Source: a virus
Reading direction: 5' to 3' (one strand)
DNA: 64,000 bases
Virus record (IMG/VR): IMGVR_UViG_3300045988_161338
Location: 1-64,000 of that record
Position 1 is the stretch's first letter. Every line of letters begins with the position of its first letter. This document shows positions 34,138 to 50,858 of the stretch, piece after piece. Under the pieces are notes generated by a model. That model was not told the origin of the DNA. It ran no database searches and saw only the letters and a list, made by a program, of their open reading frames with translations. Position numbers and translations under genes: made by a program.

Positions 34138-34431
34138 TTAATCTTCGTCGTCCTCCTCGTCTTGTGGTTGCTTCTCGGCTATGTAGAGCGATGCTGCCTT
34201 GACGAGCACGGCGAGACCTCCTGCAAACCATGCGCCAAAGATGTAAGGGAAAAACTCTCTCATCATGAAGATGCCGATGAACTTTTTGTTAGAGTAGTCG
34301 TCGGTAAAGAACCACAGGCAGAAGCCGATGACTACAATTGCCAAGGCGAGGATGAAGCCAAGGCGTGCGAAGACGTTCAACACTCGGGCTGTCGTTGATG
34401 CGTCCATGGAAAAGAATTTCTTGATGTTCAT
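34138..34431 (-). CDS. small membrane protein with acidic tail
   Basis: 97 aa with 2-3 TM helices. C-terminal sequence QPQDEEDDED. Confidence 0.55.
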   Translation of the reverse strand: MNIKKFFSMDASTTARVLNVFARLGFILALAIVVIGFCLWFFTDDYSNKKFIGIFMMREFFPYIFGAWFAGGLAVLVKAASLYIAEKQPQDEEDDED

Positions 34432-34488
34432 AATAATTTTGAAAATAATTGTTAAAGTTTAGAGCAAATGCTTGCTCTGTATTGATTG

Positions 34489-34920
34489 TTATAACGTATG
34501 CTCGCCGTTCTTGTAGGGTACTATAATCTCCTGCTCGTCGCCGTTCTCGAAGATGTGCGTGTGGTGCAGACGGTATTCCTTATCAACGTAAAACTCGCCA
34601 TCAACCTCATACGTCTTGCCGTCGGCCTTATACTGGAGGTTGTCGCTTCCGTTACTATGCTTAGTGAGCATAATGTCTTCGATACGGTGCACTATAGGTG
34701 TCGTGTAGTGCTCACGGAGGTAAGCCTTCAACTCCTCGATTTGAGCCTCTGTCGGTTCGCCAGTCTCGTCAAGTTCATCATCGTCAAAGTACTCGTAATA
34801 GCCTGTACAGCTCTCAGCATCATTGATGATATAGTCGGCTACTGTCATGTAGTTCTCACGAATTTCTTGCTCGTTATCGTGAGCTATCGCCTTGATGTAA
34901 GTGTCTATTGATTTTCGCAT
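34489..34920 (-). CDS. hypothetical acidic protein
   Basis: 143-aa ORF rich in D/E/Y. Confidence 0.6.
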   Translation of the reverse strand: MRKSIDTYIKAIAHDNEQEIRENYMTVADYIINDAESCTGYYEYFDDDELDETGEPTEAQIEELKAYLREHYTTPIVHRIEDIMLTKHSNGSDNLQYKADGKTYEVDGEFYVDKEYRLHHTHIFENGDEQEIIVPYKNGEHTL

Positions 34921-34980
34921 ATTCTTTCCGCTTTGCCGTAATGCGGTAGGGCTGAAACGTGGTTATTTTTATGTTATTTG

Positions 34981-35364
34981 TTACTTGTCTTCGGGGTCTT
35001 TAGGCAAGACAGAAGACCAGAAGGGATCATCGTCTTCGGTCTGTTGAGGCTCCATGAGAGCGTTGAGCTGCTCGTCGGGAAACTCTAAAAGGGTGAGGGT
35101 GCCGAGGAAGAGCTGTGAAAAATCTTCAAGAGAGTCGCCCGCCCTCTTCGCCTTCTCGATAAGCTCAAAGATCGTAGGGTTGAGCTGTTCGTGATAGCCT
35201 GTCGGCTCGATGGCATCGGTGAAGCGACGGCTGAGGTCGGTGTACTTGGCCTCGAACTCGTCGAAAGACGTGATGACGCCACGCCTGATGTCGAGGAAGA
35301 GGTCTTGCGTCATGTCCTCGTACTGGGCGAGGATCTTCCTGTAAGCTTTGTAGTTTCTTTCCAT
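34981..35364 (-). CDS. hypothetical protein
   Basis: 127-aa ORF. Confidence 0.6.
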   Translation of the reverse strand: MERNYKAYRKILAQYEDMTQDLFLDIRRGVITSFDEFEAKYTDLSRRFTDAIEPTGYHEQLNPTIFELIEKAKRAGDSLEDFSQLFLGTLTLLEFPDEQLNALMEPQQTEDDDPFWSSVLPKDPEDK

Positions 35365-35412
35365 ATTCTTAATTCTTAAAAGATTTTATTGTCATACATA
35401 AGCCACACGCTG

Positions 35413-36546
35413 CTACATGGAATGCGTGAGGCTGTCGGGTTGCGGGCGTTCGGGGATGACGGCATTGGTGTCGTCGGGGAGGTTGTCGAACGCCTGTGCT
35501 ATGGCAGGGTCGTCGTAAGACGGCGACGGCGAGTGGAGCGCGAGCTGTTCGGCTTCGAGCTGTTCGGAGCCAGGCAGACGGAAAGCCTGGAAGGCTGCCG
35601 GGGAGAGCTGGAGGCGCGTGACGATGTAGCGCTGCGTCATGGCTATGTCAGGGGCGTTGCCCGTGAGATGACCCATCATGAGGGCTATCTGTTCAAGCGG
35701 CACGTTCTTAAGCGACAGGTTTGTGGCGAAAGAGCGCCGCCCGGTGTGGGTGGAGACAAACTGCCACTTGGGGCCTGTCTGCTCCCTGCCCGCCTGAAAG
35801 ATCTTTACCTTTGTGTTGATGCCGCAAGCCTTGCAGAAGAAGCGCACGCCCTCATTGTAGGACGATACGGCAACGGATGCAGGCTCGGTGGGCGAAGACG
35901 GTGTGAGGTACTGGCGCAGCCACGGATGGACAGGCACCGTGACCTCGCGGCGCGTCTTCTGCGCGACATAGGTGATGGTGCGTCCGTCGGGCGAGATATT
36001 GTCGGGCGAGAGGCGCACACAGTCGGACAGTCGCGCTCCACACAGACACTCAAGCATGAAAATGCGCTTGATGTGCCTTCTTTTTGCCGTGCGCGGCAGA
36101 TAAGAGTGGAGACGGTATATTTCCCCGTCTGTAAGATAAACGGCCTGTGTGACCGTTTTCTTGGTTTTCAGGACCTTTGCGTAAGACATGGACGGGATGT
36201 CCTTGGAGTCGGCGTTGGCACTTATGATCGAATTGATCTCGGCACAGATTGTCTTTACCGAGTTGGGCGCATAAGCCTCGTCGAGCTCTGCCTTTAAGTC
36301 GCGGAGGTTGTCGTCGGTGATGTCGCTCCACATGGGAGCCCGCCCCAAGATGTCGCGAAAGATGTTGAGCACCTTTATGCGACCGGGGTATTTCCAGATA
36401 TACGCGCCGTAGAACGTATGTCGCCAACGGTAGCCGTCGTAAGTAGAGAAATAGCCCTGACGGATGGCGTTGGCATAAGTCTTCTGTTGCTCAGAAGAGA
36501 GCAACACCGTCCAACGGCGCGTCGGGATTGTCGGAAGATGTTTCAT
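35413..36546 (-). CDS. tyrosine recombinase (second integrase; full R..HxxR..H..Y set)
   Basis: Start MKHLPTIP at 36546, inside the artefactually long ORF 35413-37011. CGARLSD, HTGRRSFAT, MMGHLTG...TQRYI. About 70-aa C-terminal tail. Confidence 0.8.
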   Translation of the reverse strand: MKHLPTIPTRRWTVLLSSEQQKTYANAIRQGYFSTYDGYRWRHTFYGAYIWKYPGRIKVLNIFRDILGRAPMWSDITDDNLRDLKAELDEAYAPNSVKTICAEINSIISANADSKDIPSMSYAKVLKTKKTVTQAVYLTDGEIYRLHSYLPRTAKRRHIKRIFMLECLCGARLSDCVRLSPDNISPDGRTITYVAQKTRREVTVPVHPWLRQYLTPSSPTEPASVAVSSYNEGVRFFCKACGINTKVKIFQAGREQTGPKWQFVSTHTGRRSFATNLSLKNVPLEQIALMMGHLTGNAPDIAMTQRYIVTRLQLSPAAFQAFRLPGSEQLEAEQLALHSPSPSYDDPAIAQAFDNLPDDTNAVIPERPQPDSLTHSM

Positions 36547-36610
36547 ATCTAAAAGTTTTGGTTTAACATGGGGCGCGTGACGAGGACGCGCCATTTGAGG
36601 CAGGGGTGTG

Positions 36611-37057
36611 TCAGAAGAGCGTGACCTTATAGACAGGTAAGCCGAAGCTCTTGCGCCGTCGGCCGACGGTGAAGCCCAGCATCTTGAGCAGACCAACGGC
36701 GTTGGCGGCGAACGGCTCGTCAACAATGATGTGAGGGCGGCTGATCTCGTCGTCCTGAAGGGTCCCGAAATGAGGACCGTCAGGCTCTTGCCGCAAGAGT
36801 TCGGGAGGGACGGCGTAGCCGATGAAGACCTCGCCACACAAACGTTCGGCAGAGGTGACGAAGAGCGACGACGCGAAGCCCGACTTTGGAGCGTCCTTAA
36901 AGTCGGCAAACCTAAGGACATAGATGAGCAGATAGTCTTCAACGCTATGGTCACGGAAGAACATTGCCACATCGGCCTGGAAAGCCGCTGTGTCGAAGAC
37001 AGGAGCGACAAAACCCTTCTCTTTGAGAATGTCTTGCGCCCGAACGATTTTAGACAT
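36611..37057 (-). CDS. hypothetical protein
   Basis: 148-aa ORF with the CATAATTCT start context. Confidence 0.6.
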   Translation of the reverse strand: MSKIVRAQDILKEKGFVAPVFDTAAFQADVAMFFRDHSVEDYLLIYVLRFADFKDAPKSGFASSLFVTSAERLCGEVFIGYAVPPELLRQEPDGPHFGTLQDDEISRPHIIVDEPFAANAVGLLKMLGFTVGRRRKSFGLPVYKVTLF

Positions 37058-37739
37058 AATTCTTGTTTTTAAGGTTCTACTTAGGTTATTGCAAAGGTAG
37101 TAATATTTGCAATAACATTGTGTTTTGCCAAACCCATTAACACTTAATTAACACAAGGTGTTAAAGAAAAGACGTGTCTTGACAACATGTCGCGATGTCT
37201 GTAAAGGATTGATGTGAAGCCTTGACGACATCCAGGTGATACCGGCTTATGATGCCGGTGGAACCTGTTGATGTTTGGCAGAGGGTTCACTAAAGGGAAT
37301 TGTCCTGACACGTCATGGGTTCGCGAAACCCTCTCCCCTCTCACATAAGATGCCGCATTGCTGTAAGGGTTTGATCTTGGTGATGATCGGACGATGAGAC
37401 GGGAGCCGCGGGGTCTCGTCTCATCGTATCAGGTCATCAGGCATGTTAACGAAGATATGCTTGAAGGGAGATGCGCTGCGGTGCGCGTGTGTGTGTGTGG
37501 TTTGGTTGTAGACACACCGAGAAGGGCGTGTCTTGTTTTAGGGCGGGAGCCAAGCAGGACGGCACATGGCTGTAAAGGATTGATATTGCCTGTAAGGAAC
37601 CAGAAAGAAGGTCCCTTGTTCCTTTCAGACAGGGATGCCCTGTCTTGAAAGAATAAGGGCCCTTCTTTCTGGATGTCTTATAGGAAAATTAAACTGAGCT
37701 GCTTCGCTGTCCGTCTCCGTGTGCGCGGAGGATGAGGGG
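37058..37739. ncRNA. ORF-free, hairpin-dense region 3' of the RT (three CTGTAAAGGATTGAT-type boxes)
   Basis: Boxes at 37199-37213, 37361-37375 and 37570-37584. Stems at 37085-37116 (11 bp), 37241-37259, 37281/37327, 37391-37426 (11 bp) and 37600-37672 (12 bp, with an inner GACAGGG/CCCTGTC). (GT)n at 37488-37500. The transcribed strand is unknown. Confidence 0.45.
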
Positions 37740-39005
37740 TCAGATGTTGTCTACGAGAGCGTCGTAAGCAGCCCTGCGTGTGAGCATGGCGGCCTGAGCG
37801 CAACCGATGGTGAGATAACCCTCGATGATTTGTTCAGTGGCCAACCTGTTGGCCCTGACATTCTTGCCTTTGCCCCTTGCGATGCAGCCGTCTTTCTGCA
37901 TCTTGTCGAAGCCGAGGCCACCAAGCTTTTTCTTGCCCGTCTGAACGGCCCGCAGGCAGTCGAGGACGAACGTGTTGAGGATGGAGACGTCTCTCTTGAC
38001 GTTGATGATGGGCAAGACCTGTGTGGCCCATGAGTGGGAGCCGAAGCCTTTGTAGAGGTACTTGTTGACCGCGTTGACCGCACGTTGGAGCGTGGTCTCG
38101 CGCCAGTTGACGGTTCTACGTTCAATCTCCTTCTGGAACGTCTTGATGCGCGAAGGAGAGAGCGAGATGTCATGGCCCTTGACGGCAAAGCCGAGGAACT
38201 TGAACCAATGGTTGGAATCGAGATACTCGACCTTTTTGGGGTTGAGCTTCATGGACATCTTGTCGAGCTCCTGCTGCAAGACGGTCATGGCCTGAGCATA
38301 ATCGTCGCCGATGTAGAGCATGTCGTCAGAATAGCGTACATAATAGCCATTAAGACAGGACAGCTTCTCGTCGATGTGACAGAGCAGCACGTCGGCGAGC
38401 CATGCAGCCACGGCACAGCCCTGCTTAAGGGACTGATAGCTGTTGCAGATGTTGCCGTCGGGGTCGAAGAACGTGTCGCAATGGTAATAGCTGCGAAGAA
38501 GAGCGATGAGCGCGGACTGGCCGTGCATCTCTTCGATGCGGTCAAAGATCGCGTCGATGAAAGAGAGCGGGACAGAGTCGAAATATTTAGACAAGTCGGA
38601 CTTGAAGCCTATCGTCTTGCCTTCGGCAGCACACACCATGCGCGAAGCCTCCTGCACGACACGGCCACAGCCAATGCCTTTCTGGTAAGACTTGCATGAG
38701 CTGTGGACCATGTCGGGCGCGAGGTCGAACAAGAGGTCGTTGATGCCGCTCAGCAACACCCGGTCAACAGGCTCGTTGACATAGACGGTACGGTAGTCGC
38801 CGTTGTCCTTTGGTATCAGGGCAGCATGGGGCGGCATGATTTTGTACTGCCCGTCCCTTATGCGCTGATAGAGGAGAGCGCGAGCTTCTGGCGTTGTGAG
38901 CTGATAAAGCGTTGCTTTGTCGATGCCCTTGTCTACGCCCTTGTTGATGGCCTGTTGCCACCGTTGAGGCTCGAAGAGCATCTGGAGGATTTTGTCTTCT
39001 TTCAT
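37740..39005 (-). CDS. reverse transcriptase (stand-alone; not DGR-, retron- or obviously group-II-like)
   Basis: 421 aa: IPKDNGDYRTVYV, SDLSKYFDSV, LKQGCAVAAWLAD, YVRYSDDMLYIG, KLNPKKVEYL...FKFLGF, plus a C-terminal region of about 120 aa. Confidence 0.85.
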   Translation of the reverse strand: MKEDKILQMLFEPQRWQQAINKGVDKGIDKATLYQLTTPEARALLYQRIRDGQYKIMPPHAALIPKDNGDYRTVYVNEPVDRVLLSGINDLLFDLAPDMVHSSCKSYQKGIGCGRVVQEASRMVCAAEGKTIGFKSDLSKYFDSVPLSFIDAIFDRIEEMHGQSALIALLRSYYHCDTFFDPDGNICNSYQSLKQGCAVAAWLADVLLCHIDEKLSCLNGYYVRYSDDMLYIGDDYAQAMTVLQQELDKMSMKLNPKKVEYLDSNHWFKFLGFAVKGHDISLSPSRIKTFQKEIERRTVNWRETTLQRAVNAVNKYLYKGFGSHSWATQVLPIINVKRDVSILNTFVLDCLRAVQTGKKKLGGLGFDKMQKDGCIARGKGKNVRANRLATEQIIEGYLTIGCAQAAMLTRRAAYDALVDNI

Positions 39006-39054
39006 AATTCTGTTGTTTAATGGTTTTGAGAAGGTCTGCCGTTGGAGGCAGACC

Positions 39055-39227
39055 CTGTTGGGAAGCGTGCGGCCACGGGCGCGGGCCTTGCTTTAAAGGA
39101 TTGATACGAAAGCTTCTGAAGAGAAGATCGGGGAATCAGGAAATCTTCCTGAAGACGCGATCTTGGTTCTTAAGAGCTTTGTTAAACAGAAGCCCGTCCA
39201 CCACACGCCGTGCGGCTTGAAGAGGTG
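39055..39227. ncRNA. ORF-free structured leader 5' of the RT (one box copy)
   Basis: Box CTTTAAAGGATTGAT at 39091-39105 between GCTTT/AAAGC flanks. Stem GAAGAT/ATCTTC at 39123-39148. GC-rich palindromic stretch at 39066-39088. Confidence 0.45.
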
Positions 39228-40238
39228 TTACTTTTGCTGTTTCTGCACCTTCCACTCATGGACCTTGTCCTCGATGGAGATGCCAGCGTCGGCGATGAGC
39301 TGCTTCATGACACCCATCATGCGCCAGCCCTCTTTCTCGTACTCGCGAGCTTTGTCCTCGACATGCCGCAAAGACGCCTTTTCGCCCTTTGACGCGAAGC
39401 GTGCGCCATGGAACATGACGAGGTTGCGCATGGTGAAATAGGCACCCGCGCCCTTGTAGGCATTGATGAACGCATCGGCCTGCTTGGTTCTCCATTTAAG
39501 ATGCGGACGCTGCTTGTTGAAGCTGACGACGAGCTGATAAAGCTCCCTGTAAGACTTGGCTTGCTTGACGGCAAGAGAAGCCTTGACGACAGGCGTATAG
39601 AGTTTTCTGCCGATGTCGTTGAGGAAGACGTTCTTGCCAGCAATCTTGACGTAAGGCATGCCCTTGCAGGTGTGCTTATAAACCATCTCGCCACGCTTGT
39701 TGCGGCGGTGGGAGAGCTTGTCGACATGAGAACGCAGCTTAAAGAGATAGTCGTCTATCATGGCTGAGACCACGTCTTGGTTGAACCACAGGATGCGCTG
39801 CGAGAAGCAAGCGGCGTCGTTGTTCTCCTGCATCTTCGCGATGGCATGGAGCTCGTTTTCAAGCATGCGCCACTGATATTCGTAGCCGTTATGCTGAACG
39901 AGAGCGTTGAAACTTTCGCCCGACCTCTCCATTCGGCGAAGCAAGCGGAACATCTGCGCCATGACGAAACGGCGGAAGAGCGGGTGGACGTTGACGTAGC
40001 CCCCAGAAGCTATGCTCTGATAGATGGGGTCGTCGTCGAGGACCTGGACAGGTACACCGTCGACAACCTTGACCACCATGTCGCTTCCCATCGGGAAGAA
40101 GCACGATGTGTCGATGCCTGCTGCCTTGAGCGCAGCGATGCGGTCAACAGCCGTCTTCGGCTTGGAAGCGTTGGACGGCTTGGGTGCTGTCAGTTCGTTG
40201 ATTGTAAACTCGCCTGAGATGATGACGTTTCTTTTCAT
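39228..40238 (-). CDS. hypothetical protein
   Basis: 336-aa ORF immediately upstream of the RT leader. No motif recognised. Confidence 0.65.
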   Translation of the reverse strand: MKRNVIISGEFTINELTAPKPSNASKPKTAVDRIAALKAAGIDTSCFFPMGSDMVVKVVDGVPVQVLDDDPIYQSIASGGYVNVHPLFRRFVMAQMFRLLRRMERSGESFNALVQHNGYEYQWRMLENELHAIAKMQENNDAACFSQRILWFNQDVVSAMIDDYLFKLRSHVDKLSHRRNKRGEMVYKHTCKGMPYVKIAGKNVFLNDIGRKLYTPVVKASLAVKQAKSYRELYQLVVSFNKQRPHLKWRTKQADAFINAYKGAGAYFTMRNLVMFHGARFASKGEKASLRHVEDKAREYEKEGWRMMGVMKQLIADAGISIEDKVHEWKVQKQQK

Positions 40239-40307
40239 AATTCTATTGTTTTTTTGTTAATAATGATGGTTAAAAGAGGGAGCAAGGGATGGCGTTGCTC
40301 CCGTTTT

Positions 40308-40766: not shown

Positions 40767-40789
40767 AATTCTTATTTGTTGGTGAATAA

Positions 40790-40977
40790 GAAACCGCCAC
40801 ACACAGAAGCGTGAGACGGTCTGTTTAAAGGCTTGCATGTGAAAGACCTGGCGCAATTGCTATAAACGGTTGATGTTACCAGTTGTAACGCCGCACAGCG
40901 CGGCGTGCTTAAGAACTGGTCGCTAAAGGCTGTCTTTCCGGCACACAGAATTTCAGGCTGCGCTGCCTTCTCGGGAT
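40790..40977. ncRNA. ORF-free structured spacer with a degenerate box copy
   Basis: GGTCT-[GTTTAAAGGCTTGCATGTGAA]-AGACC at 40818-40848. Nested stems ACCAGTT/AACTGGT and CGCCGC/GCGGCG at 40879-40918. Confidence 0.35.
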
Positions 40978-41250: not shown

Positions 41251-41311
41251 AATTTCATAATATTGGTTAAACAAGAAGGGGAGGCATTACACCTCCCCCT
41301 TTTCAGGATTT

Positions 41312-42602: not shown

Positions 42603-42657
42603 AATTCTTGTTTTTTTTGGTTAATGGAAGGGAGATTGCTCTCCCCCTTTTTTTTGG

Positions 42658-43653: not shown

Positions 43654-43711
43654 AATTCTATTTTTTAATGGTTAATAGAAGGCAGGAGGAAAAATCCTCC
43701 CGCCTTAATTT

Positions 43712-45364
43712 TTAGACTACAACAAGCAGAGCATGCTCTCGTCTGAACTTCGCTTCATCCTCTTCCATGCACTTCTCGGAACAATAACACTCTCCCGTGA
43801 TCTCAGAATAGAAATCCTCGGTGTCGCCCGGGAAATATTCTCCACACACAGGGCACAGAGAATCTTTCTCGGCGTCGAGCCATGAGTTGGCAGCGTCGCT
43901 CCATACGGCACGTTTCTCGGGGATGTACTCCTCGTGATAGTCAGAATACTCACAGTCCTCTTTGAGCTGCCAATTGCCGTCGATGTCCAGGATACAATCG
44001 TCAACGAGACGAGAATCTCCGACGCTATCGACATAGCAGCAATCGTCGTCATACAGATAAGCATCCTCGTGGTTTGACCAATACCAATCGTCGCTCATCG
44101 AAGCACGACCGTCGTTGATAACGATTCTCTCGCCTCTGTATATGGCGTCTGATTGCTGATTATTCCACATCCAATCCTCGTAGTAGTCGTCATAGACACT
44201 CTCCTCTTCTGGAATGTACTCTCCGTAATAGTCCGACCAATTACCGCCGCCGCCAAACTGACTGTCTGTCGTGTTTAGCTCGTCGGAATAGGACTTAGAC
44301 GAGTCGTTGTACGAGATTTGTTCGTCGTGGTTATAGTAGATGAACGAATCTTGATAGCTCAGCGTGTTGCCAGCTTCAAGACAACACGCAATGTGCAGCA
44401 CAAGGTCACGCATAGAAGAACCGTCGTTGCGGACAAAGTTCTTGTTATCGTGACAATCGACGCCCACACGCTTGTAGCCGTCAATCTCGCCTGCCTTGAT
44501 AAGCTTGTCAACGAGAATCTGCTTGAGGACATTGTCTTGCCCCATTGAATATTGACGCTCTGCAAGACGATAATGGTTGCCGTTTTCGTCTATCACATCG
44601 GTGTAGACGATGCAACGAGCAACAATCCATCCGTATTCGTCTGTGATATAAGCCGCCTTGGCCTCTATCGCGTCGCGATAGAAGGTGTGCTGATCCTTAT
44701 CTGTCATGCAGCTTCCAAAGTCACCATAACAGCGGCCGCTGTCATAAATATCTTCGAAATTATCATCGACATGCAGCGTGTACCTGTCGGTGCAGCGCTG
44801 CTCGGCAAAGACCTGCCACTCACGGGCAAACTCCTCGCCTATCCAGCGTTTAAGCTGCTCAGGCATGTAGTCGCGCGTGATGCGGCATTCCTCTATGCAC
44901 CTTGTGATGAACTTTCCGGCCTTCATTTTGAAGACCTTCTCGCGTTCTACGTTCTCATAGCGCACGGCCTTGGAATCTCCATCGGCACAAATGCCTTTGA
45001 AGCCGTCAAGACGCATGCTTGAACTATAGAACGTGAACGAAAGATCTCCGAAATCTATGCAGTAATAAGGGGACGCCATGCCGCAAACATCGTTATACAC
45101 GATACGGTTCATCATCTTCTTGGCGAAATACTTGAGATCGTCCATGCTTGTAGCACGGAGATAGTCACAGTTCTTGTAAAGATGACTTCGATGTGTTCTG
45201 TCGCAACTGTCCTTGAACGAAAGCCACCAATGAAGCAGCTTTCTGTCCTTCAGGCAAGCCAGAAGGATTTTGTTCTTGCGCGACTTTACACCGTTGCCAT
45301 GCTCCACAACACCGAAGAGAACTTTGAACTCCTCATAATTTTTGAAACTCTTAATGTAAATCAT
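43712..45364 (-). CDS. hypothetical large protein
   Basis: 550 aa. Acidic, Tyr/Trp/Cys-rich C-terminal half ending in CxxC...CxxxC. Confidence 0.65.
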   Translation of the reverse strand: MIYIKSFKNYEEFKVLFGVVEHGNGVKSRKNKILLACLKDRKLLHWWLSFKDSCDRTHRSHLYKNCDYLRATSMDDLKYFAKKMMNRIVYNDVCGMASPYYCIDFGDLSFTFYSSSMRLDGFKGICADGDSKAVRYENVEREKVFKMKAGKFITRCIEECRITRDYMPEQLKRWIGEEFAREWQVFAEQRCTDRYTLHVDDNFEDIYDSGRCYGDFGSCMTDKDQHTFYRDAIEAKAAYITDEYGWIVARCIVYTDVIDENGNHYRLAERQYSMGQDNVLKQILVDKLIKAGEIDGYKRVGVDCHDNKNFVRNDGSSMRDLVLHIACCLEAGNTLSYQDSFIYYNHDEQISYNDSSKSYSDELNTTDSQFGGGGNWSDYYGEYIPEEESVYDDYYEDWMWNNQQSDAIYRGERIVINDGRASMSDDWYWSNHEDAYLYDDDCCYVDSVGDSRLVDDCILDIDGNWQLKEDCEYSDYHEEYIPEKRAVWSDAANSWLDAEKDSLCPVCGEYFPGDTEDFYSEITGECYCSEKCMEEDEAKFRREHALLVVV

Positions 45365-45445
45365 AATTCTAAAATTTTGGTTAATAGAGTCCGCACCAAT
45401 ATGTGCGGACCTTTTTAAGGTTGGCTAACCGAACATGAGCAGTCG

Positions 45446-45832
45446 TTAGAAACGGCTCATATCCACCCCGTAGATTTTTGCAAGGCTCAGAATGCCTTTG
45501 GCGATGCGCTCAAACCATGAATGCACAAACAGATAGGGTCCTGCGTCAATTCTGCAATAACCCCACTCCGTGCCAATTTGGGCGATGTCGTAATCTGTAA
45601 ACGCTACATTTACGGTGGAACACAGACCGCTTATCCACTCCGTCAGCAAATCGAGAACGGACATTCCGCGTCTGTCGTTTTCAAACTTCTCTACATAGAA
45701 AGTATCAAGCGCAAACTCGATTCTTTCTTTGTCCGACATAGACTCCACATCTACCTCATCGGAAGAGATGGAGTCAAGAATGTAGGCGTACATTTTGCCG
45801 CGCACTTCGTAATTCCGTGGATTCTTTTTCAT
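45446..45832 (-). CDS. hypothetical protein
   Basis: 128-aa ORF with the module upstream. Confidence 0.6.
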   Translation of the reverse strand: MKKNPRNYEVRGKMYAYILDSISSDEVDVESMSDKERIEFALDTFYVEKFENDRRGMSVLDLLTEWISGLCSTVNVAFTDYDIAQIGTEWGYCRIDAGPYLFVHSWFERIAKGILSLAKIYGVDMSRF

Positions 45833-45893
45833 AATTCTAAAATTTGTTGGTTAATAGAAATCCCCATCCTTGCGGGTGGGGATTAATTTAGGC

Positions 45894-46073
45894 TCAGCAA
45901 TGAGTTATGCTGATAATTCCTTTAAGCGCCTCACGAAGAAGGCACTCGGCGCGAGGGTCTATATAATCTGTCATGCGACAGTTGTGCAGCTTACGCGCTG
46001 CAATCTTTAGTCGCTTCACCTCGTATGAAAGTGAAGCCTCAAACTCTTGGTTACATCTTTTGTCTCTTAGCAT
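45894..46073 (-). CDS. hypothetical small protein
   Basis: ATG 46073 with the CATAATTCTCG context. Confidence 0.45.
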   Translation of the reverse strand: MLRDKRCNQEFEASLSYEVKRLKIAARKLHNCRMTDYIDPRAECLLREALKGIISITHC

Positions 46074-46134
46074 AATTCTCGTACTATTTGGTGAATAGAA
46101 GGCAGCATGGCAATTCATGCTGCCCGTTTTTAGG

Positions 46135-46455
46135 TCATGCGACACGTCCGAGGTTTTCAATCCCTGCATTTTCTGCAAGGATATAGGCAGGACGTGCCGA
46201 CGGATCCGTCATCGTAGGGTCGATGTAGATAAACATCTCCTCTTTCTCCACGATGTCAAGATCCATGTCTCTCACCTCCTCTTCTGTGAAGAAAAGGCCG
46301 TTGTATTCTATCCTCTCAAGATAAGCGAGGACATACTCAAGCGCCTCCTCCTCATGGAAGGCGTAGACATTGAATGAAGATGTGGTATAGCCACAGCCAC
46401 ACCACAACGACACCTTGAAAAGGTAGGTGCCGCATTCTTTGTTGTTAATTGTCAT
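46135..46455 (-). CDS. hypothetical protein
   Basis: 106-aa ORF with the module upstream. Confidence 0.55.
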   Translation of the reverse strand: MTINNKECGTYLFKVSLWCGCGYTTSSFNVYAFHEEEALEYVLAYLERIEYNGLFFTEEEVRDMDLDIVEKEEMFIYIDPTMTDPSARPAYILAENAGIENLGRVA

Positions 46456-46509
46456 AATCCTTTTGCTTTGGTGAATAGAGCCACTCGTCTTTGAGTGGCG
46501 GTTTAGGGT

Positions 46510-46818
46510 TTAGTGTCGCTCCAGACAAAGGAGAATCACAATGGAGAGGTTGGTTTCTAAGACCTTGAACTCCACCTCTCCCCGCATCAAATATCTCATA
46601 AGATGCGGATGTTCCTCGCAGTCATAGTCGCAAGCGTAGGCTGTGAGGTATTTCCCCGGCTGCAAGATAACCTCTCCTGTAGCAGGATTGTCGCTAACAA
46701 ACAAGTCGGCAGCTGTCATCTCTTCCTTAATTGTCACGATGTCGTAGTTACGAGAATCGCCATCTGACAGCAGCATCTCCATGACGGAGATAAGCTGCTG
46801 TTTCGTTAATTCCTTCAT
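46510..46818 (-). CDS. hypothetical protein
   Basis: 102-aa ORF with the module upstream. Confidence 0.55.
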   Translation of the reverse strand: MKELTKQQLISVMEMLLSDGDSRNYDIVTIKEEMTAADLFVSDNPATGEVILQPGKYLTAYACDYDCEEHPHLMRYLMRGEVEFKVLETNLSIVILLCLERH

Positions 46819-46874
46819 ATTTCAAAAAAATTGGTTAATAGAGCTGCTCTTGTTCCTGAGCAGCATTTTTGGCT

Positions 46875-47060
46875 TTAATCAATATAAACCTTGCGCGAAC
46901 CTTTCAGTTCCGCAAAATGACATATATTGTCGTACTTGTAAACCTCAAATTTCTTTGAGAATTTGTTGTACGAATCACGCACCCACACGGGCGCATCCTC
47001 TGAATCTGTTAGGCGAAGATGCGCACCTCGCTTAACTTTTCTTACTTCAATCTTTTTCAT
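46875..47060 (-). CDS. hypothetical small protein
   Basis: 61-aa ORF with the module upstream. Confidence 0.5.
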   Translation of the reverse strand: MKKIEVRKVKRGAHLRLTDSEDAPVWVRDSYNKFSKKFEVYKYDNICHFAELKGSRKVYID

Positions 47061-47115
47061 ATTATCTTTTTTGGTTAATAGAAGGCGTGCGTAATGAACA
47101 CGCCATGTTTAACTG

Positions 47116-47280
47116 CTAAAAGAAGCGTGGGCGCGAGAAATGACGCTCTATCTCTCGCGCCACCCTATCGGCATGAGCAGCACGTTTGGAATATTCTCCA
47201 TCACTCTTACTCTCCTTTGCAATAAATGCCTTGTGACTCGCCACGAGAGCAGCGAGAAACATCTTGTCTGCTTTTGTCAT
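47116..47280 (-). CDS. hypothetical small protein
   Basis: 54 aa translated by hand (MTKADKMFLAALVASHK...), with the module upstream. Confidence 0.4.
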   Translation of the reverse strand: MTKADKMFLAALVASHKAFIAKESKSDGEYSKRAAHADRVAREIERHFSRPRFF

Positions 47281-47339
47281 AATTCTTGATTTTGGTTAAT
47301 AGAACCACCCCAAAGAAAGAGGTGGCTTTTTAGGGTTTG

Positions 47340-47480
47340 TTACTCCATCCACACGCCGCCATGGAACGATAAATTATGCCCGTTCCACTCGCCGTGCCAA
47401 TGTCCACCGCTCAACTCTGTAACTTCTACGGAAGCAAACAGTGTTGAGCCATCCTGCAAGATTATCATCTCTTTTTCCAT
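47340..47480 (-). CDS. hypothetical small protein
   Basis: 46 aa translated by hand (MEKEMIILQDGSTLF...), with the module upstream. Confidence 0.4.
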   Translation of the reverse strand: MEKEMIILQDGSTLFASVEVTELSGGHWHGEWNGHNLSFHGGVWME

Positions 47481-47692
47481 ACTCAAAAATGTTGGTTAGT
47501 AGAACCACCCCACAAAGAGGTGGCGTTTCGATTTCCGCTTTCAGTCCTTTCTTTGTTTCAAGGCGGGAAACGGCTCAAAGGGAACTTCTAACCGCAAATC
47601 TGTAAGACCACCTCAGGTTAATGAGACCTTTGTTCCGTGCCACGGCTTGAACGTGGTGTGCGCCTCGGACGCTCACGGAAATAACGTACTGC

Positions 47693-47926
47693 TCAACATT
47701 CGGAATTGCATCCGAATATTTCTTTTTCCAAGCGCAGATTTGCAGCGTAGAAGGCTGCAAAAAATCTGCGACCAATTCTCGTACTGCTCAAGAGATAGAA
47801 CAGCACAACAAGATAAGCCACGCCAATGACGCAGCTAATTAACGTACTGCTCAAGATGAGCAATATAGGAATGAAAAACAAATTTCCAAGCACAATTATC
47901 GTACTTGTTTTTAAAAACTCTTTCAT
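47693..47926 (-). CDS. small membrane protein
   Basis: ATG 47926 with the CATAATTCTCG context. Two TM helices and an internal LSST duplication. Confidence 0.5.
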   Translation of the reverse strand: MKEFLKTSTIIVLGNLFFIPILLILSSTLISCVIGVAYLVVLFYLLSSTRIGRRFFAAFYAANLRLEKEIFGCNSEC

Positions 47927-47986
47927 AATTCTCGTACTATTTTTGGTTAATAGAAGGCAGCACATTATCGTACTGCCCTTTTTGCC

Positions 47987-48220
47987 TCACAGAGCATACA
48001 GCTCACTTTCGGAAGCATCCAAAAGTGAACCACCCGCGAGAATGGAAAATACACAAGGAACAAAACCCTTTATGTTCTCCATCTTCTTTACTCTCTCCTG
48101 TGCTTTAGCCCTTATAGACAACAGACCCAATCTGCCGTCAATAGGCATGAAAGAATCCATGCCTATCATTTCCACAAGGTTGGATTTAAGATCCTTGTGG
48201 TAAAATTTTATCCATTTCAT
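47987..48220 (-). CDS. hypothetical protein
   Basis: 77-aa ORF with the module upstream. Confidence 0.5.
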   Translation of the reverse strand: MKWIKFYHKDLKSNLVEMIGMDSFMPIDGRLGLLSIRAKAQERVKKMENIKGFVPCVFSILAGGSLLDASESELYAL

Positions 48221-48284
48221 AATTCTCGTACTTAGTTAATAGAAAGAAGGTGTGTCAAAACACCCTCTTGATTTAGACGCGCTC

Positions 48285-48500
48285 TCAAAACATGAAAAGC
48301 GCGGTTGTTCTTTTCGTTATGGCATATAGACGGCCGCTTTCGCCTTGCAACAGCTTGCCGTTACAGCCGTAGAGGCCGTTGGATTGCCCGATTTGGGTAT
48401 ATGATTCTGGCACATCACTGCGCGTATTACAGAATGTGATGTCCTTCGCGGCTCCTGTTCTCACAAGCCGCTTCAACTCCTTTAATGTGTATCTTTCCAT
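48285..48500 (-). CDS. hypothetical protein
   Basis: 71-aa ORF with a variant module upstream. Confidence 0.5.
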   Translation of the reverse strand: MERYTLKELKRLVRTGAAKDITFCNTRSDVPESYTQIGQSNGLYGCNGKLLQGESGRLYAITKRTTALFMF

Positions 48501-49262
48501 TTCTAATTTGTTGGTTTGTAATTGCAGAGCGGAGATCTCTCCCCGCCCCGTTTGCCTGGGATGTGCATCTTTGCACCGCGCTTTATCTTTATCGTCTTAA
48601 CTACGCGGCTCACACCCCACCATTTCACAGCATGGCTGCTGCATGTTTTTCTGCTGCAAACTCAAACGTTACACGGCTAACATGAAACCGCTTTCAGAAG
48701 AGAATCGCTTGTCGGATATACCTCACGGGGGATATTCTCTTGTTACCCCCGGTGTTATGCGCGAGGAACCACCTCGCACGGCCACAACGCCGTTAGAATA
48801 TGAATTATGATAACACCTATTTTTCTACTACTCCCACCGCTGTGGGTAGCTCGGTTCGTTACGGCGCATTGGATTGCTTAACCTCACTCGTTCCCTTCTT
48901 GCGTCCTGCTCGCTCTTGTCCTCTCCTTTGCCCTCAGTCGTGGCGAAACTGCAATACCTGATCGCGCTCGTTTCGCTCGTGTGCCTGTGCCACTCGTTCC
49001 AGATAGAACTACATGACTCAGAGAAGATAGTTAGCGGCATTCGTGCCGACCGCGTTACGAATGTAACCGACATTCAGGACATCTCGATGGGATGTTGTGC
49101 CCCACCCTCGCACATGCGAGGTTTGCTGACGCCCTAAAAATAAGCGATACAATAAAGGCGTGCCACTTTGCAGCGACGCGCCAAAATTATATGTTCCTTT
49201 GTTGGGGTTGAACCAACGGCAGGGCCTTTAACCCTTAAAGGATGAAAAAGCTATTAAACGAC

Positions 49263-49295
49263 AAAAGGTTGCCAAAATTTGTCTGGCAACCTTTT
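49263..49295. terminator. bidirectional intrinsic terminator
   Basis: AAAA, then stem GGTTGCCA/TGGCAACC, then TTTT, directly downstream of 49342-49872. Confidence 0.7.
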
Positions 49296-49341
49296 GCAAG
49301 AGAGTTAAACGTCTCTCTTAAACGTTTGAACGGCTTAGAGC

Positions 49342-49872
49342 TTATTTGCCCTTTGCAACCTTTGCGCGTGCTTCTTCACGAGTCATAAAGCCAACAGCAA
49401 CCATTTGCAACAGTAGTTTAATTTCTGAAATGGTCAACGGCGTTTTCTTTGTAACCGTTACACGTTTCTCGCTTACATCCTTATAAACAGAAGAAACGAA
49501 CGACGCCAAACGCGCGGGCGTGTCAAGGTATTGGCCGTGTGTGGCTACTTTGTCCGCGAACGCCTTAGAGTTTAAAAACTCTTCTGCCTTCATTGCGTCA
49601 ACATTGTATCGATAGCCAAACGCGCGGACCGCCTTTGTAGCGGTCAACAATACGGCGTTGTTGTATGCGGCATTTGCTTTCACCGCTTTCATCTCAAAGG
49701 CTTCGACTGCCTTACATGCTGTCGCCTTAGTGTCTAACAACGCTTTGTAGTCCTTGTTTGCCTTAAAGGCTTCGTCTGTTAGCGTGTCGTTCTTTCTGTC
49801 TGAAACAACACTAACCATAATCTCTAACTCTTTCGCAACGGCTAAAGCCATTTCATTTACTGATTTTGCCAT
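49342..49872 (-). CDS. hypothetical Ala/Lys-rich protein
   Basis: 176-aa ORF, first gene of the minus-strand block next to the divergent control region. Confidence 0.6.
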   Translation of the reverse strand: MAKSVNEMALAVAKELEIMVSVVSDRKNDTLTDEAFKANKDYKALLDTKATACKAVEAFEMKAVKANAAYNNAVLLTATKAVRAFGYRYNVDAMKAEEFLNSKAFADKVATHGQYLDTPARLASFVSSVYKDVSEKRVTVTKKTPLTISEIKLLLQMVAVGFMTREEARAKVAKGK

Positions 49873-50858
49873 AACTTAAATTGGTTTAAACGTTTCCCCT
49901 TACTTGCTTAACTCTCTGTCTGTCAAGGGGAAACGAGACAAGAGAGAGAGCGGAACAAATTAGCCGCCCTTCACCTATATAAGAGCAAAAAACGCGCCTT
50001 AGAAGCACGTTTTACACACTTTAACAAACGTGTAACTTATTGTGTTTCAGTGTTTTACAGATGTTTAAAATGTAAATATTTATGCAATGTGTGCCAATAT
50101 GGCAATTTTAACTTAATATATCTTAATTTGGCAGACCTTGTCAGTGACAAGTGGTCAAAAAATACAAAGTTTAACCTTTTTATACATTCGTGAAACATTA
50201 AATCAAAAGTGTGTTTGTATTAATATATCGGTGTAACGTGGTGATATTTAAGGGGTTACGAAAGTTAATAATGTTTGGTTTGACGTGAAACATTTTTTGA
50301 AGAAGAAGGGACGTTTGCAAATATTATGTTAAATAATATTGGGTTTTTGGATATTTTACAGGGGGTGCCCCCCTTTGGGAGGGGCGCGAGGGCGCGTAGT
50401 GACCTCACAAAAAATCTTTTCTTCTTTTTTGGGAGTGTTTTTGTGTTTTGCGTATTGGTTTGCTAACGTGTGTGAAATTTTGTAATGTATTCCAAAAATA
50501 TACGTCTTTATGTATATTTATGCAGTTTGTGGTTGTATTAACTATTGTTTGCGTTTGTTTACATATTTATTCTATTGACATTGTTTTGAGGGTTATCGCC
50601 TTTTTTGAAGGCCGAAGCTTCATTTAATGTAGCAAAAAGAGCAGTAAGTTTATTGGTTTTATGGGGGTTTATGCAGCATTGAAGGATAATAATGAGTATC
50701 TTTATCGTGCAGATGCGAGATTGTGTTTGGGTGAGCTTAGGGTTCATACATTCATGATTGTAGCGTTCATCGGTGTTTGCGGTGTGTAGATGCTCCATGT
50801 TGCTGACGGATTTGGTAGTATGGAGGCCGCAAGTGAGAATTAACGAAAAGAATAGAGT

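Follow-up and report, generated by a model that had tools for sequence, protein, structure and literature searches.

What does the sequence that recurs between the genes of a long one-way viral array do? The window, by which we mean the whole 64,000-nucleotide stretch of DNA that was analysed, carries such an array on its minus strand. The initial annotation counted about 25 genes, almost all preceded by a hairpin, a conserved box and AGAATT-ATG, and likened this module to the promoter/stem-loop cassette boundaries of T4-type phages. Based on ORF lists and sequence reading, we counted 24 co-directional genes over 16 kb, from the ATG at 49872 to the stop at 34138. They are mostly ORFan cassettes joined by a composite stem-loop and gene-start linker, in line with the earlier description. 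The window belongs to a temperate, LoVEphage-like phage of Segatella/Prevotella, with LoVEphage itself a distant relative, and not to a T4-like myovirus.

The array and its linkers

The reverse transcriptase, recombinase and peptidase of what the initial annotation proposed to be an anti-defence or host-takeover island were all recovered, the first as part of the already known UG27 system; none of the ten small array proteins scanned against Pfam gave a credible family match.

34138..49872, minus strand: unidirectional array, g1 (49872-49342) to g24 (34431-34138); ORF lists and sequence reading
42658..43653, minus strand: g13, peptidase-like protein (phrog_4191)
37740..40766, minus strand: UG27 reverse-transcriptase system, g17-g19 (PADLOC)
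40308-40766, minus strand: g17, RTas346 (PADLOC, E 1e-46)
39228-40238, minus strand: g18, RTas337 (PADLOC, E 2e-100)
37740-39005, minus strand: g19, RT_UG27 (PADLOC, E 3.5e-209; Pfam RVT_1)
35413..36546, minus strand: g21, tyrosine recombinase (Phage_integrase)

Non-coding DNA in the array amounts to about 2.2 kb, with a typical intergenic length of 54-64 nt. Between 17 and 20 of the intergenic regions share a common layout, namely an A-rich flank, a GC hairpin, a U-rich spacer, (TATT)AACCAAAA and AGAATT-ATG. Twenty linkers carry the module, whereas g20 and the last three genes (35364-34138) lack its hairpin/TATTAACCAA part, which narrows the earlier claim that it precedes almost every gene. 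The repeats are strictly oriented: CATAATTCT occurs in 13 exact copies between 37055 and 48226, all on the plus strand (shuffle expectation 0.65), and TTGGTTAATAG in 11 copies at 0-1 mismatch between 42617 and 48242, again all on the plus strand. Furthermore, a weight matrix derived from relatives gave 16 minus-strand matches of at least 12 bits, all 16 within 36.5-49.95 kb. The near-identity of the modules at 46074 and 47927 over about 40 nt, already remarked upon, was confirmed.

49873..49935, minus strand: linker 1, before g1, no ORF upstream; long-loop hairpin 49935-49891, CGTT-TAAACCAA (49888), ATG 49872 (z -2.6)
48501..48550, minus strand: linker 2, before g2; hairpin 48550-48525, CAATTACAAACCAA (weight matrix, z -3.1)
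48221..48284, minus strand: linker 3, before g3; hairpin 48269-48244, TCTATTAACTAA, AGAATT-ATG (folding)
47927..47986, minus strand: linker 4, before g4; hairpin 47979-47954, TTCTATTAACCAAAA, AGAATT-ATG (matrix 17 bits, z -3.1)
47481..47524, minus strand: linker 5, before g5; hairpin 47524-47504, TTCTACTAACCAAC (weight matrix, folding)
47281..47339, minus strand: linker 6, before g6; hairpin 47326-47304, TTCTATTAACCAAAA, AGAATT-ATG (weight matrix, folding)
47061..47115, minus strand: linker 7, before g7; hairpin 47104-47084, TTCTATTAACCAAAA (weight matrix, z -3.7)
46819..46874, minus strand: linker 8, before g8; hairpin 46864-46843, TCTATTAACCAA (weight matrix, folding)
46456..46509, minus strand: linker 9, before g9; hairpin 46499-46480, TCTATTCACCAAA (z -3.1)
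46074..46134, minus strand: linker 10, before g10 (ATG 46073); hairpin 46125-46100, TTCTATTCACCAAA, AGAATT-ATG (z -4.5)
45833..45893, minus strand: linker 11, before g11; hairpin 45884-45859, TCTATTAACCAAC, AGAATT-ATG (weight matrix, folding)
45365..45445, minus strand: linker 12, before g12; hairpin 45411-45388, TCTATTAACCAAAA, AGAATT-ATG (folding); holds the remnant (ATGTTCGGTTAG) of a deleted 78-aa cassette
43654..43711, minus strand: linker 13, before g13 (peptidase); hairpin 43705-43680, TTCTATTAACCAT, AGAATT-ATG (z -5.5)
42603..42657, minus strand: linker 14, before g14; hairpin 42645-42630, TTCCATTAACCAAAA, AGAATT-ATG (folding)
42161..42221, minus strand: linker 15, before g15; hairpin 42206-42187, ACAGTTTAACCAA, AGAATT-ATG (folding)
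41251..41311, minus strand: linker 16, before g16; hairpin 41300-41276, CTTGTTTAACCAA (folding)
40767..40821, minus strand: linker 17, before g17, with about 155 nt of non-coding DNA (40822-40977) ahead; hairpin 40821-40792, TTCTTATTCACCAAC, AGAATT-ATG (z -5.7)
40239..40307, minus strand: linker 18, before g18; hairpin 40302-40278, TCTTTTAACCAT, atypically long 28-nt spacer to AGAATT-ATG (folding)
39006..39056, minus strand: linker 19, before g19 (RT); hairpin 39056-39031, TTCTCAAAACCATT, AGAATT-ATG (z -5.2)
36547..36610, minus strand: linker 20, before g21 (recombinase); hairpin 36592-36572, CCATGTTAAACCAAAA (weight matrix, folding)
37501..37532, minus strand: module-like hairpin (GACACGCC/GGTGTGTC) then TACAACCAAACC, non-coding, no ORF behind (sequence reading)
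34072..34097, minus strand: array-closing hairpin with an A-tract as 5' flank, one sense G·U pair and a sense strand without U-tract (sequence reading)

The same linker is present in more than 100 gut viral contigs and in all 80 relatives fetched via the reverse transcriptase of the array. In these 80 relatives the arrays are one-stranded, with a median of 13 modules versus 1 on the opposite strand. Outside the UG27 system, no gene is common to all arrays.

Hairpins and gene starts

Folding of the 20 module-bearing intergenic regions gave a single dominant hairpin in each, at -12 to -24 kcal/mol and with z-scores of -0.6 to -5.7 (≤-2 in 16 of them). The stems are short (6-11 bp), mostly perfect and without extrahelical bases; their sequences differ from copy to copy, and the conserved box lies outside them. 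Across 591 intergenic regions, 205 internal stem mismatches are G·T and 13 are A·C; among 316 distinct hairpins, the coding strand has 114 G·U and 14 A·C (p = 1e-20). This strong excess of G·U on the coding strand shows that the hairpin is under selection in the sense RNA. Orthologous hairpins display 60 compensatory double changes versus 31 disruptive ones, the loops being the most variable part.

Family-wide, A makes up 60% of the coding-strand 5' flank of the hairpin, and this flank often reads CCTAAAAA, corresponding to CTTTTT on the plus strand. The T-tract that had been noted on the seemingly wrong strand is thus real, and it is the A-rich 5' flank of a sense hairpin. The idea of a terminator acting on the non-coding strand is contradicted by the G·U pairs. 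Reading the linkers as punctuation of a long operon, as set out below, gives this conserved flank no established role, which counts against that reading. On the sense strand, the tails after the hairpins are interrupted and weak, which is compatible with leaky termination; the box is reached through 5-11 nt of spacer that is poor in G, rich in U and variable in sequence.

Unseeded motif discovery in 1180 upstream regions returned nTAT(T)AACCAAAA in 802. This motif starts at -24..-26 and thereby positions its A-run at -14..-11, while AGAATT places A at -6 and -3. In Flavobacterium johnsoniae, A-6 and A-3 were measured to be positive determinants (PMC6847099). The A-run and AGAATT match the published Shine-Dalgarno-less Bacteroidia start signal, a translation context. 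Only AACC at -18..-15 is not accounted for by this known context, and its two C's show the strongest conservation of all positions (93% and 88%). The distance from box to ATG is tight, varying by about 2 nt either way, while that from box to hairpin is loose (5-11 nt). Moreover, folding predicts no pairing from the box to the AUG in 13 of the 20 window linkers, and only weak pairing in the remaining seven.

Motif scans of the window found no box in the replication operon or the late genes, and internal genes of other operons have Shine-Dalgarno-like sites instead. Hairpin-less AACGAAAA boxes do precede four divergent right-arm genes, on the plus strand and beyond the region covered by the initial annotation; one of these genes encodes an RtcB RNA ligase.

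50840..50858, plus strand: hairpin-less box TTAACGAAAA-GAATAGAGT, before the first right-arm gene (ATG 50859)
51848..51865, plus strand: hairpin-less box TTAACGAAAA-TATAGAGT, before rtcB (ATG 51866), in a 29-nt intergenic region
53071..53100, plus strand: hairpin-less box TATTAACGAAAA, before a small ORF
53368..53388, plus strand: hairpin-less box TATTAACGAAAA-TATAGAGAACA, before the YopX gene (ATG 53389)

Promoters, cassette exchange and competing readings

The host Bacteroidota -7 box TAnnTTTG was present in 59 of 1261 upstream regions (4.7%, versus 2.6% expected by chance), leaving more than 95% of linkers without it, and no host -7/-33 consensus emerged in the linker upstream regions. A scan of ORFs across the window detected no phage sigma factor or RNA polymerase. 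Of the proposed analogy to T4-type cassettes, the stem-loop and gene-start architecture stands; the promoter half finds no support in this one test, made for the host box. Three host-type boxes were located in and around the array; g20 (ATG 37057), which keeps AGAATT-ATG and has no hairpin/AACC module, sits behind one of them.

50493..50500, minus strand: host-type -7 box TATTTTTG, candidate promoter at the array head in a 0.9-kb AT-rich divergent region (pattern match only)
49182..49189, minus strand: host-type -7 box TAATTTTG, in the 840-nt non-coding stretch between g1 and g2 (pattern match only)
37092..37099, minus strand: host-type -7 box TACCTTTG, 35 nt before g20 (pattern match)

Between relatives, indel breakpoints are enriched 4.6-6 fold at linkers, and both clean core-to-core insertions (L006/L025, L009/L088) and replacements bounded by the box and CCTAAAA were found. 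The expectation that gene content changes at module boundaries is borne out in these cases, but not between the window and its 93% relative, where both indels are microhomology deletions. Since the linker is the sole sequence common to otherwise unrelated genes, recombination there would exchange single genes.

We tentatively favour, at a little under an even chance, a two-part signal that works chiefly at the level of the sense RNA, in a long operon read by the host polymerase, and that combines punctuation, an optimised start and recombination. The A-rich flank, variable GC-rich hairpin and 5-11 nt spacer after each cistron would most likely serve as a leaky terminator or attenuator allowing read-through, and most likely also provide the preceding cistron with a 3'-end or insulating structure. 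The (UAUU)AACCAAAA at a set distance from the AUG, followed by AGAAUU-AUG, would supply A's at -14..-11, -6 and -3 and form an optimised Shine-Dalgarno-less Bacteroidia initiation region, single-stranded beside the hairpin. The invariant AACC at -18..-15 would mark the 5' edge of the ribosome-loading region, perhaps as a site contacted by the ribosome or S1, used in processing or bound by a regulator. Recombination within the linker would swap, insert and delete single genes, yielding the mosaic arrays observed in hundreds of related gut phages. The hairpin-less boxes before the right-arm genes, one of them in only 29 nt, agree with such a start region. However, the conserved C's of AACC exceed the known start context, and the class-specific distribution of the box is unexpected for a purely general ribosome signal. 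In addition, at least 18 hairpins follow one another, so that distal genes would be starved by termination of even modest strength, barring antitermination or internal initiation, and the hairpin before g1 has no upstream cistron to finish.

The main rival, possible though doubtful, is a true analogue of the T4-type cassettes, in which each linker is made of a terminator and, after it, a promoter specific to this class of phage, TATTAACC(AAAA). Transcription would begin at the A's after CC with the help of an unrecognised sigma factor, sigma appropriator or RNA polymerase of the phage, and each cassette would be autonomous with a 14-nt leader. This would resolve the polarity problem, and cryptic phage polymerases have precedents. 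It would also suit the conservation of about 12 specified bases directly upstream of a very short leader, a box found with a single class of genes only, on each of the two divergent arms, the Shine-Dalgarno-like sites of internal genes elsewhere, and the module-like element at 37501-37532 with no ORF behind. Besides the missing host consensus and the lack of a detected sigma factor or polymerase, the best conserved bases, AACCA, would coincide with or follow the start site instead of occupying a -10-like position, and the constant box-ATG spacing is more typical of a translation signal. Were transcription to start after the TATTAA -10-like element, the mRNA would lack the adenines at -14..-11, and the cassettes are all co-oriented.

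An RNA operator is unlikely. Here, AACCAAAA...AGAAUUAUG would be bound or cut by a phage regulator or endoribonuclease that switches accessory and early genes together, with the hairpin protecting processed ends; T4 RegA and RegB are models for such RNA-level control. The class-specific box, its conservation beyond the needs of a general start context, the sense-RNA selection and the encoded RtcB all fit this purely inferential idea, but no candidate RNA-binding protein or nuclease was identified, and the arrays share no gene outside the UG27 system.

It is very improbable that the linkers are attC-like DNA sites at which the tyrosine recombinase captures or excises cassettes. The one-way, apparently promoterless cassettes, the variable hairpins adjoining a short conserved box, the recombinase within the array and the breakpoints at linkers would suit such sites. 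Nevertheless, the G·U versus A·C asymmetry indicates strand-specific selection on RNA and not on a DNA cruciform or folded single strand, the stems lack extrahelical bases, and the box lies outside them and also occurs without a hairpin. Of 30 long related arrays, only 4 have the recombinase; g21 lies within the array in the common orientation, preceded by a linker like the other genes, and some indels are plain microhomology deletions. Least probable of all are intrinsic terminators shielding the array from convergent plus-strand transcription: despite the A-rich flank, a higher-scoring antisense tail in 66% of hairpins and several modules satisfying a simple terminator rule on the plus strand, the stem G·U pairs become A·C mismatches in antisense RNA, tails are weak on both strands, and no plus-strand genes or promoters feed the array.

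Comparison with known systems

The promoter-early stem-loop (PeSL) cassettes of T4-type phages (Arbiol et al. 2010, PMC2839356; Comeau et al. 2014, PMC4122927) likewise combine a variable-sequence stem-loop with conserved gene-start signals in a short intergenic motif. Both are concentrated in hyperplastic regions directly upstream of co-oriented ORFans, and both are sites of indels and replacements between related phages. A PeSL has by definition a promoter of host sigma-70 consensus and a Shine-Dalgarno site (PMC2839356, PMC4122927), in contrast to the present linker, which has no Bacteroidota promoter box and a Shine-Dalgarno-less start region and occurs in a temperate LoVEphage-like phage instead of a T4-like myovirus.

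Integron attC arrays resemble this one in their one-way, small, apparently promoterless genes, structure-conserved but sequence-variable hairpins, short junction box and tyrosine recombinase. They differ from it in that here selection acts on the sense RNA, the stems are short and perfect with the box outside, and the recombinase is neither conserved among arrays nor divergently placed. Phage morons are accessory genes with their own flanking hairpins, and in the T7 early polycistronic RNA intercistronic stem-loops can remain as 3' stabilisers, both of which recall the present arrangement. Morons, however, carry host-type promoters, unlike the linkers, and stems of 6-11 bp are far shorter than the duplexes that T7 RNase III sites require. 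As a lead only, the T7 gene 10 'epsilon' translational enhancer, UUAACUUUA, reportedly described by Olins and Rangwala in 1989, resembles the box in being rich in A/U, containing UUAAC and lying about 17-25 nt ahead of the AUG of phage mRNAs, although epsilon acts together with a Shine-Dalgarno site.

A close match for the start region is the Shine-Dalgarno-less Bacteroidia context (Baez et al. 2019, PMC6847099), which shares the A's at -14..-11, -6 and -3, the low G/C content and the unstructured region before the AUG. Compared with this context, the phage box has two additions, a U-rich prefix and the invariant AACC at -18..-15; it is far more uniform than the start regions of cellular genes and is confined to one class of phage genes.

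Organization of the array and its linkers

ORF calls and inspection of the sequence place 24 head-to-tail genes on the minus strand of the window, running from the ATG of g1 at 49872 to the stop codon of g24 at 34138. The initial annotation had described a one-way array of about 25 genes, of which the single orientation stands and the count is corrected to 24. The intergenic regions are mostly 54–64 nt long, and non-coding sequence makes up about 2.2 kb of the array. On the coding strand, each stop codon is typically separated by a few bases from an A-rich run, frequently CCTAAAAA; then come a GC-rich hairpin with 6–11 bp and a stem sequence that varies between copies, T(T/C)CTATTAACCAA, an A/T spacer, AGAATT and the next ATG. 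This unit is referred to here as the linker, and its AACC-containing part at a fixed distance before the ATG as the box.

Exact AGAATT-ATG, which reads CATAATTCT on the plus strand, is present 13 times, compared with 0.65 expected, always in this orientation (37055–48226), and TTGGTTAATAG, allowing at most one mismatch, 11 times, also on the plus strand only (42617–48242). In fold predictions, each of the 20 module-bearing intergenic regions gave one dominant hairpin of -12 to -24 kcal/mol, with a z-score of -2 or lower in 16 of these 20 linkers. A weight matrix derived from related phages yielded 16 minus-strand matches of at least 12 bits, all of them in 36.5–49.95 kb. Motif counts, folds and weight-matrix matches agree, and the one-way array with repeated gene-start modules is real. 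The statement that a module precedes almost every gene holds for the 20 linkers, but not for g20 (ATG 37057) and the last three array genes, which are devoid of the hairpin/TATTAACCAA part.

The reverse transcriptase (RT), recombinase and peptidase expected in the array were recovered as g19 (by PADLOC), the tyrosine recombinase g21 and the peptidase-like protein g13, while none of the ten small array proteins scanned against Pfam gave a credible family match. The RT belongs to a UG27 system:

37740–40766, minus strand, UG27 system: g17, RTas346 (1.4e-46); g18, RTas337 (2.3e-100); g19, RT_UG27 (3.5e-209), all PADLOC E-values

A UG27 RT together with cluster 337 and 346 proteins and an adjacent ncRNA has been described in gut phages, with its function unknown (Mestre et al. 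2022, PMC9226505). In the array, the RT, both cluster proteins and long non-coding flanks are all present. These flanks (39006–39227 and 37058–37739) appear structured, and the order in most relatives is RT, non-coding stretch and 346/337, whereas the RT comes last in the window. A 15-mer, ATCAATCCTTTACAG, occurs in four to five copies solely in the non-coding stretches around this RT, where it may indicate signals or repeat units in the ncRNA of the UG27 system:

37199–37213, minus strand, ATCAATCCTTTACAG
37361–37375, minus strand, ATCAATCCTTTACAG
37570–37584, minus strand, ATCAATCCTTTACAG
39091–39105, minus strand, ATCAATCCTTTACAG
40860–40874, minus strand, weaker copy of ATCAATCCTTTACAG

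A second reverse transcriptase (4705–6612, plus strand; phrog_1423, E = 5e-34) adjoins the tail-fibre genes and is probably part of a diversity-generating retroelement, in line with the annotation of LoVEphage/BI-TP1 (gp11, gp12).

Several other features were observed in and around the array. On the minus strand, AGTACGAGAATT has four exact copies, compared with 0.33 expected (46074–46085, 47774–47785, 47927–47938 and 48221–48232). Three of them lie directly before start codons and one within the ORF of g4, which also contains three copies of TTGAGCAGTACG; the AGTACGAGAATT copies could be a regulator site or the trace of linker duplication. Located 5′ of g2 is a non-coding element of about 110 nt (~48515–48625, minus strand) that matches 81–98 related loci, with individual matches reaching 80–90% identity compared with 66–76% for the neighbouring genes. 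Its predicted structure consists of nested stems with two compensatory pairs and ends in a module-type hairpin followed by ACAAACCAA, and no Rfam match was obtained for it. The last array gene is immediately succeeded by an 11-nt sequence in three perfect tandem copies (34098–34131; CCCCATGTAAA on the minus strand), then by a hairpin and 800 nt of unusual composition (33.3–34.1 kb), within which an attachment site could be located. At the other end, the array is separated from the divergent right arm by a 0.9-kb AT-rich region without credible ORFs (49936–50858). TTTG and TGTTT are frequent in this region, a GC-rich palindrome lies near 50360–50400, and the whole is a candidate control region or origin.

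Relatives and cassette exchange

The window encodes a terminase, portal, tail proteins, primase-helicase, RtcB, repressor-like protein, integrase and antirepressor. Its large terminase shares 57% identity with the temperate Bacteroides LoVEphage/BI-TP1 group, and no nucleotide match was found among GenBank phages. The exact pattern TCTATTAACCAA-N4-20-AGAATTATG was found in at least 116 stretches of IMG/VR viral contigs and, among bacterial genomes, in Segatella copri and Leyella stercorea, with isolated single matches elsewhere. Given this distribution, the phage is assigned to the Prevotella group. The pattern also occurs in L127, a MAG labelled Bacilli bacterium that carries the RT too, and in L119, a Methylomonas MAG, both of which are probably mis-binned phage contigs or chance matches.

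Relatives of the RT are encoded in 354 IMG/VR stretches, and all 80 relatives fetched via the RT (66–100% amino-acid identity) possess arrays, with a median of 13 modules on the RT strand compared with one on the opposite strand. No modules were found in LoVEphage, the early genes of which are tightly packed, or in Bacteroides phage BI-TP1 of the same group, the closest cultured relative. BI-TP1 has a hairpin-less TTAACGAAAAG box before rtcB (L002, 31849–31867), in the same place as at 51848 in the window. Literature searches did not retrieve an earlier description of the linker, which is real, widespread and, as far as these searches reach, previously undescribed.

Clustering of the proteins of 116 loci revealed that the gene order is loosely conserved, single genes being inserted, lost or replaced and some reordered. 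Breakpoints were then analysed between pairs of loci at least 88% identical, counting unique breakpoints. Upstream homology ended 0–60 nt past the box in 25% of them, compared with a baseline of 5.5%, and downstream homology started at -40 to +12 of the box in 29%, compared with 4.8%. This corresponds to a 4.6- to 6-fold enrichment at linkers, to which selection for intact genes could contribute. Of 169 distinct events, 48 had each of their four breakpoints no more than 70 nt from a box, and some insertions extend precisely from one core to another. For instance, a 281-nt cassette present in locus L006 and absent in L025 is flanked by two ATTAACCAA cores overlapping by 9 nt, and a 252-nt cassette distinguishing L009 from L088 is a similarly clean case. 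Clean replacements extend from the position directly following TCTATTAACCAA to the CCTAAAA that precedes the next hairpin.

Events of another kind were also encountered. Among near-identical genomes (L128–L136), four possess and five lack a cassette encoding 77–78 aa between g11 and g12; it was lost through a microhomology deletion, of which the window retains a 3′ remnant of the cassette (45365–45445). In L043, a 1-kb deletion fuses g14 to g15. The two indels between the window and its 93% identical relative, which were expected to be module-bounded, both proved to be microhomology deletions. The proposal that gene content changes at module boundaries in relatives is thus supported by the enrichment and the core-to-core events, but the microhomology deletions depart from it.

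Hairpin, gene-start box and possible mechanisms

A hairpin of at least 6 bp is present in 86% of the 753 distinct intergenic regions from the first set of loci, with A at 76–79% of positions -4 and -3 before the stem. The stem search treated both strands alike, and the mismatches counted were those flanked by Watson-Crick pairs. On the coding strand, 591 intergenic regions contained 205 G·T and 13 A·C mismatches, and the 316 distinct hairpin sequences 114 and 14, respectively (p = 1e-20). In principle, G·U pairs of a sense transcript appear as A·C mismatches in the antisense RNA, while in DNA both types are mismatched. Since the G·U pairs can form only in the sense transcript, the hairpin is selected as a sense-RNA structure, and the T-tract on the non-coding strand, which had been noted as odd, is the A-rich 5′ flank of the hairpin when read on the coding strand. 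Such mismatch counting is a reusable test for which strand's RNA a conserved hairpin serves. Orthologous hairpins showed 60 compensatory double changes compared with 31 disruptive ones, the loops being most variable.

On the sense strand, the stem is followed by an interrupted tail, which reads UCUAUU in the window and, outside it, ACAAU or UCCUACA (43% U). Two window modules pass a simple intrinsic-terminator rule on this strand, and the T-tail scores are weak on both strands; judged by the usual rules from sequence, the hairpins would be leaky terminators at best. They travel with the upstream gene in 37.5% and with the downstream gene in 27.6% of cases, without a clear-cut preference. No known RNA family was detected in Rfam at gathering thresholds or at E-values up to 1, and no tRNAs were found. 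A second weak hairpin, TTCTATT/AATAGAA around the AACC box, looked attractive in six to eight window linkers and was rejected family-wide because native, chimeric and shuffled sequences have similar energies (-0.18, -0.17 and -0.14 kcal/mol, respectively).

Unseeded motif discovery in 1180 upstream regions returned nTAT(T)AACCAAAA, present at 10 bits or more in 802 of them and usually starting at -24 to -26 from the ATG; AACCA contains its most informative positions (1.3–1.6 bits each). The distance from hairpin to AACC is loose (5–11 nt), and the spacers vary in sequence (TCTATT, ACAAT, TCCTACA, TGACATTATT and others; 43% T, 6% G). In view of this loose spacing, the linker is best regarded as two parts, namely the hairpin with its A-rich 5′ flank and pyrimidine-rich tail, and a box locked to the ATG. 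In Flavobacterium johnsoniae, A at -14 to -11 (especially -12 and -13), -6 and -3 has been measured to promote initiation without Shine-Dalgarno pairing (PMC6847099). At modal spacing, the A-run after CC occupies exactly -14 to -11, and AGAATT supplies A-6 and A-3. Of the 20 window linkers, 13 are predicted to be unpaired between box and AUG, the other seven being only weakly paired there. With these A positions and a start region of little or no predicted structure, the start half of the linker belongs, by its sequence features, to the Bacteroidia class of Shine-Dalgarno-less initiation regions. The Bacteroidia start signal does not account for AACC at -18 to -15, the C residues of which are 93% and 88% conserved.

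Hairpin-less boxes, (G)TATTAACGAAAA, stand at the same distance from the ATG before four right-arm genes, one of them within an intergenic region of 29 nt:

ATG 50859, plus strand, gene with hairpin-less box
ATG 51866, plus strand, rtcB, with hairpin-less box
ATG ~53101, plus strand, gene with hairpin-less box
ATG 53389, plus strand, gene with hairpin-less box

No box was found in the replication operon (27 to 14 kb), the late genes or the head genes of the window. The box is therefore class-specific and independent of the hairpin. As a separate observation, AAGGAGG at canonical Shine-Dalgarno spacing precedes about 12 of 100 ORFs and none in the array (for example ATGs 53878, 54803, 55563, 56763 and 58605 on the plus strand; 20760, 15515 and 16180 on the minus strand). 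Bacteroidia ribosomes reportedly disregard Shine-Dalgarno sites, and such sites are unexpected in a Bacteroidia phage.

A host primary-sigma promoter in each linker was ruled out. Of 1261 upstream regions, 59 (4.7%, compared with 2.6% expected by chance) contain the Bacteroidota -7 box TAnnTTTG, and a sigma-70-type promoter scan performed no better than on shuffled sequences. On the array strand, TAnnTTTG is found between 36.9 and 50.5 kb only at 50500 (the array head), 49189, 37099 (before g20) and 36914 (inside g20). The array gene behind the TAnnTTTG at 37099, g20, lacks the hairpin/AACC module.

Combined, these data lead us to favour, tentatively, a long operon that the host polymerase transcribes and that is punctuated at the RNA level. 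Each cistron would be finished and insulated by its hairpin, serving both as leaky attenuator and as 3′ or structural barrier, the box with AGAAUU would act as an optimised single-stranded ribosome-loading region, and the shared linker would offer a substrate for recombination. The main rival, a phage-specific promoter at the box, seems unlikely, even though it would explain the class specificity of the box and avoid the polarity problem of at least 18 serial hairpins. It presupposes an unseen factor as well as an atypical geometry, and no phage sigma factor or RNA polymerase was identified with Pfam or PHROGs among about 50 window ORFs, many of which have no assigned function. Were the box a promoter, it would be of a class not previously known, and a hidden transcription factor would be implied. 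An improbable alternative is that a regulator or nuclease resembling RegA or RegB uses an operator here. Integron-like recombination sites are very improbable in view of the G·U data and of the recombinase: g21 lies within the array, co-oriented and behind its own linker, and is present in just 4 of 30 long related arrays. Antisense terminators were dismissed on the G·U versus A·C counts and deserve hardly any credence.

Equally hard to credit is the idea that the linker is the cis-site of an RNA-based cassette mobility, making the array a kind of retro-integron. Sense transcripts with hairpin, U-rich spacer and AACCA would template or prime the UG27 RT, and single-cassette cDNAs would be inserted or recombined at AACC boxes. 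RNA-level hairpin selection, breakpoints at boxes and an RT travelling with the arrays are compatible with this idea, none being direct proof.

Implications and comparison with known systems

In a very large group of Prevotella/Segatella phages of the human gut, the accessory-gene arrays can be recognised by one short linker. Its sequence offers an easy way to locate such hyperplastic regions, which are expected to contain genes for anti-defence and host takeover, and it delimits single cassettes for functional screens. Judging from its sequence, the linker may also serve as a compact, naturally optimised Shine-Dalgarno-less start element for hard-to-engineer organisms, possibly with a promoter or processing element attached, and the AACC box may point to an undescribed gene-expression step of Bacteroidota phages.

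Among known systems, a Rho-independent terminator consists of a GC-rich hairpin directly followed by a U-tract; the linker has the hairpin, and its sense tail is interrupted. Integrons possess a conserved IntI-type integrase with attI and Pc beside the array, an arrangement not shown by g21. Their attC sites are imperfect palindromes acting as folded ssDNA, whose conserved R and L boxes form the stem. The linker, by contrast, has short stems, most of them perfect, and a conserved box that is not part of the stem, and its mismatches indicate RNA pairing.

The closest known system is that of the promoter-early stem-loop (PeSL) cassettes of T4-type phages, to which the array had been likened. The likeness holds for the architecture, the location upstream of ORFans and the role as mosaic boundary, but not for the host primary-sigma promoter that each PeSL motif contains, as indicated by the TAnnTTTG counts and the sigma-70 scan. 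The stem-loop of a PeSL motif acts as terminator or attenuator; a hairpin is present in all 20 window linkers and 86% of the related intergenic regions, selected as sense RNA and followed by a weak U-tract. Concentration in hyperplastic regions upstream of ORFans is shared, since all strong motif matches fall in the array and arrays are mosaic in relatives, and so are motif-bounded indels and replacements between close relatives, with counter-examples. Because the defining host-sigma promoter is missing, the linker region is regarded as working like PeSL without being a member of it, and PeSL-like modular shuffling is not confined to T4-like phages.
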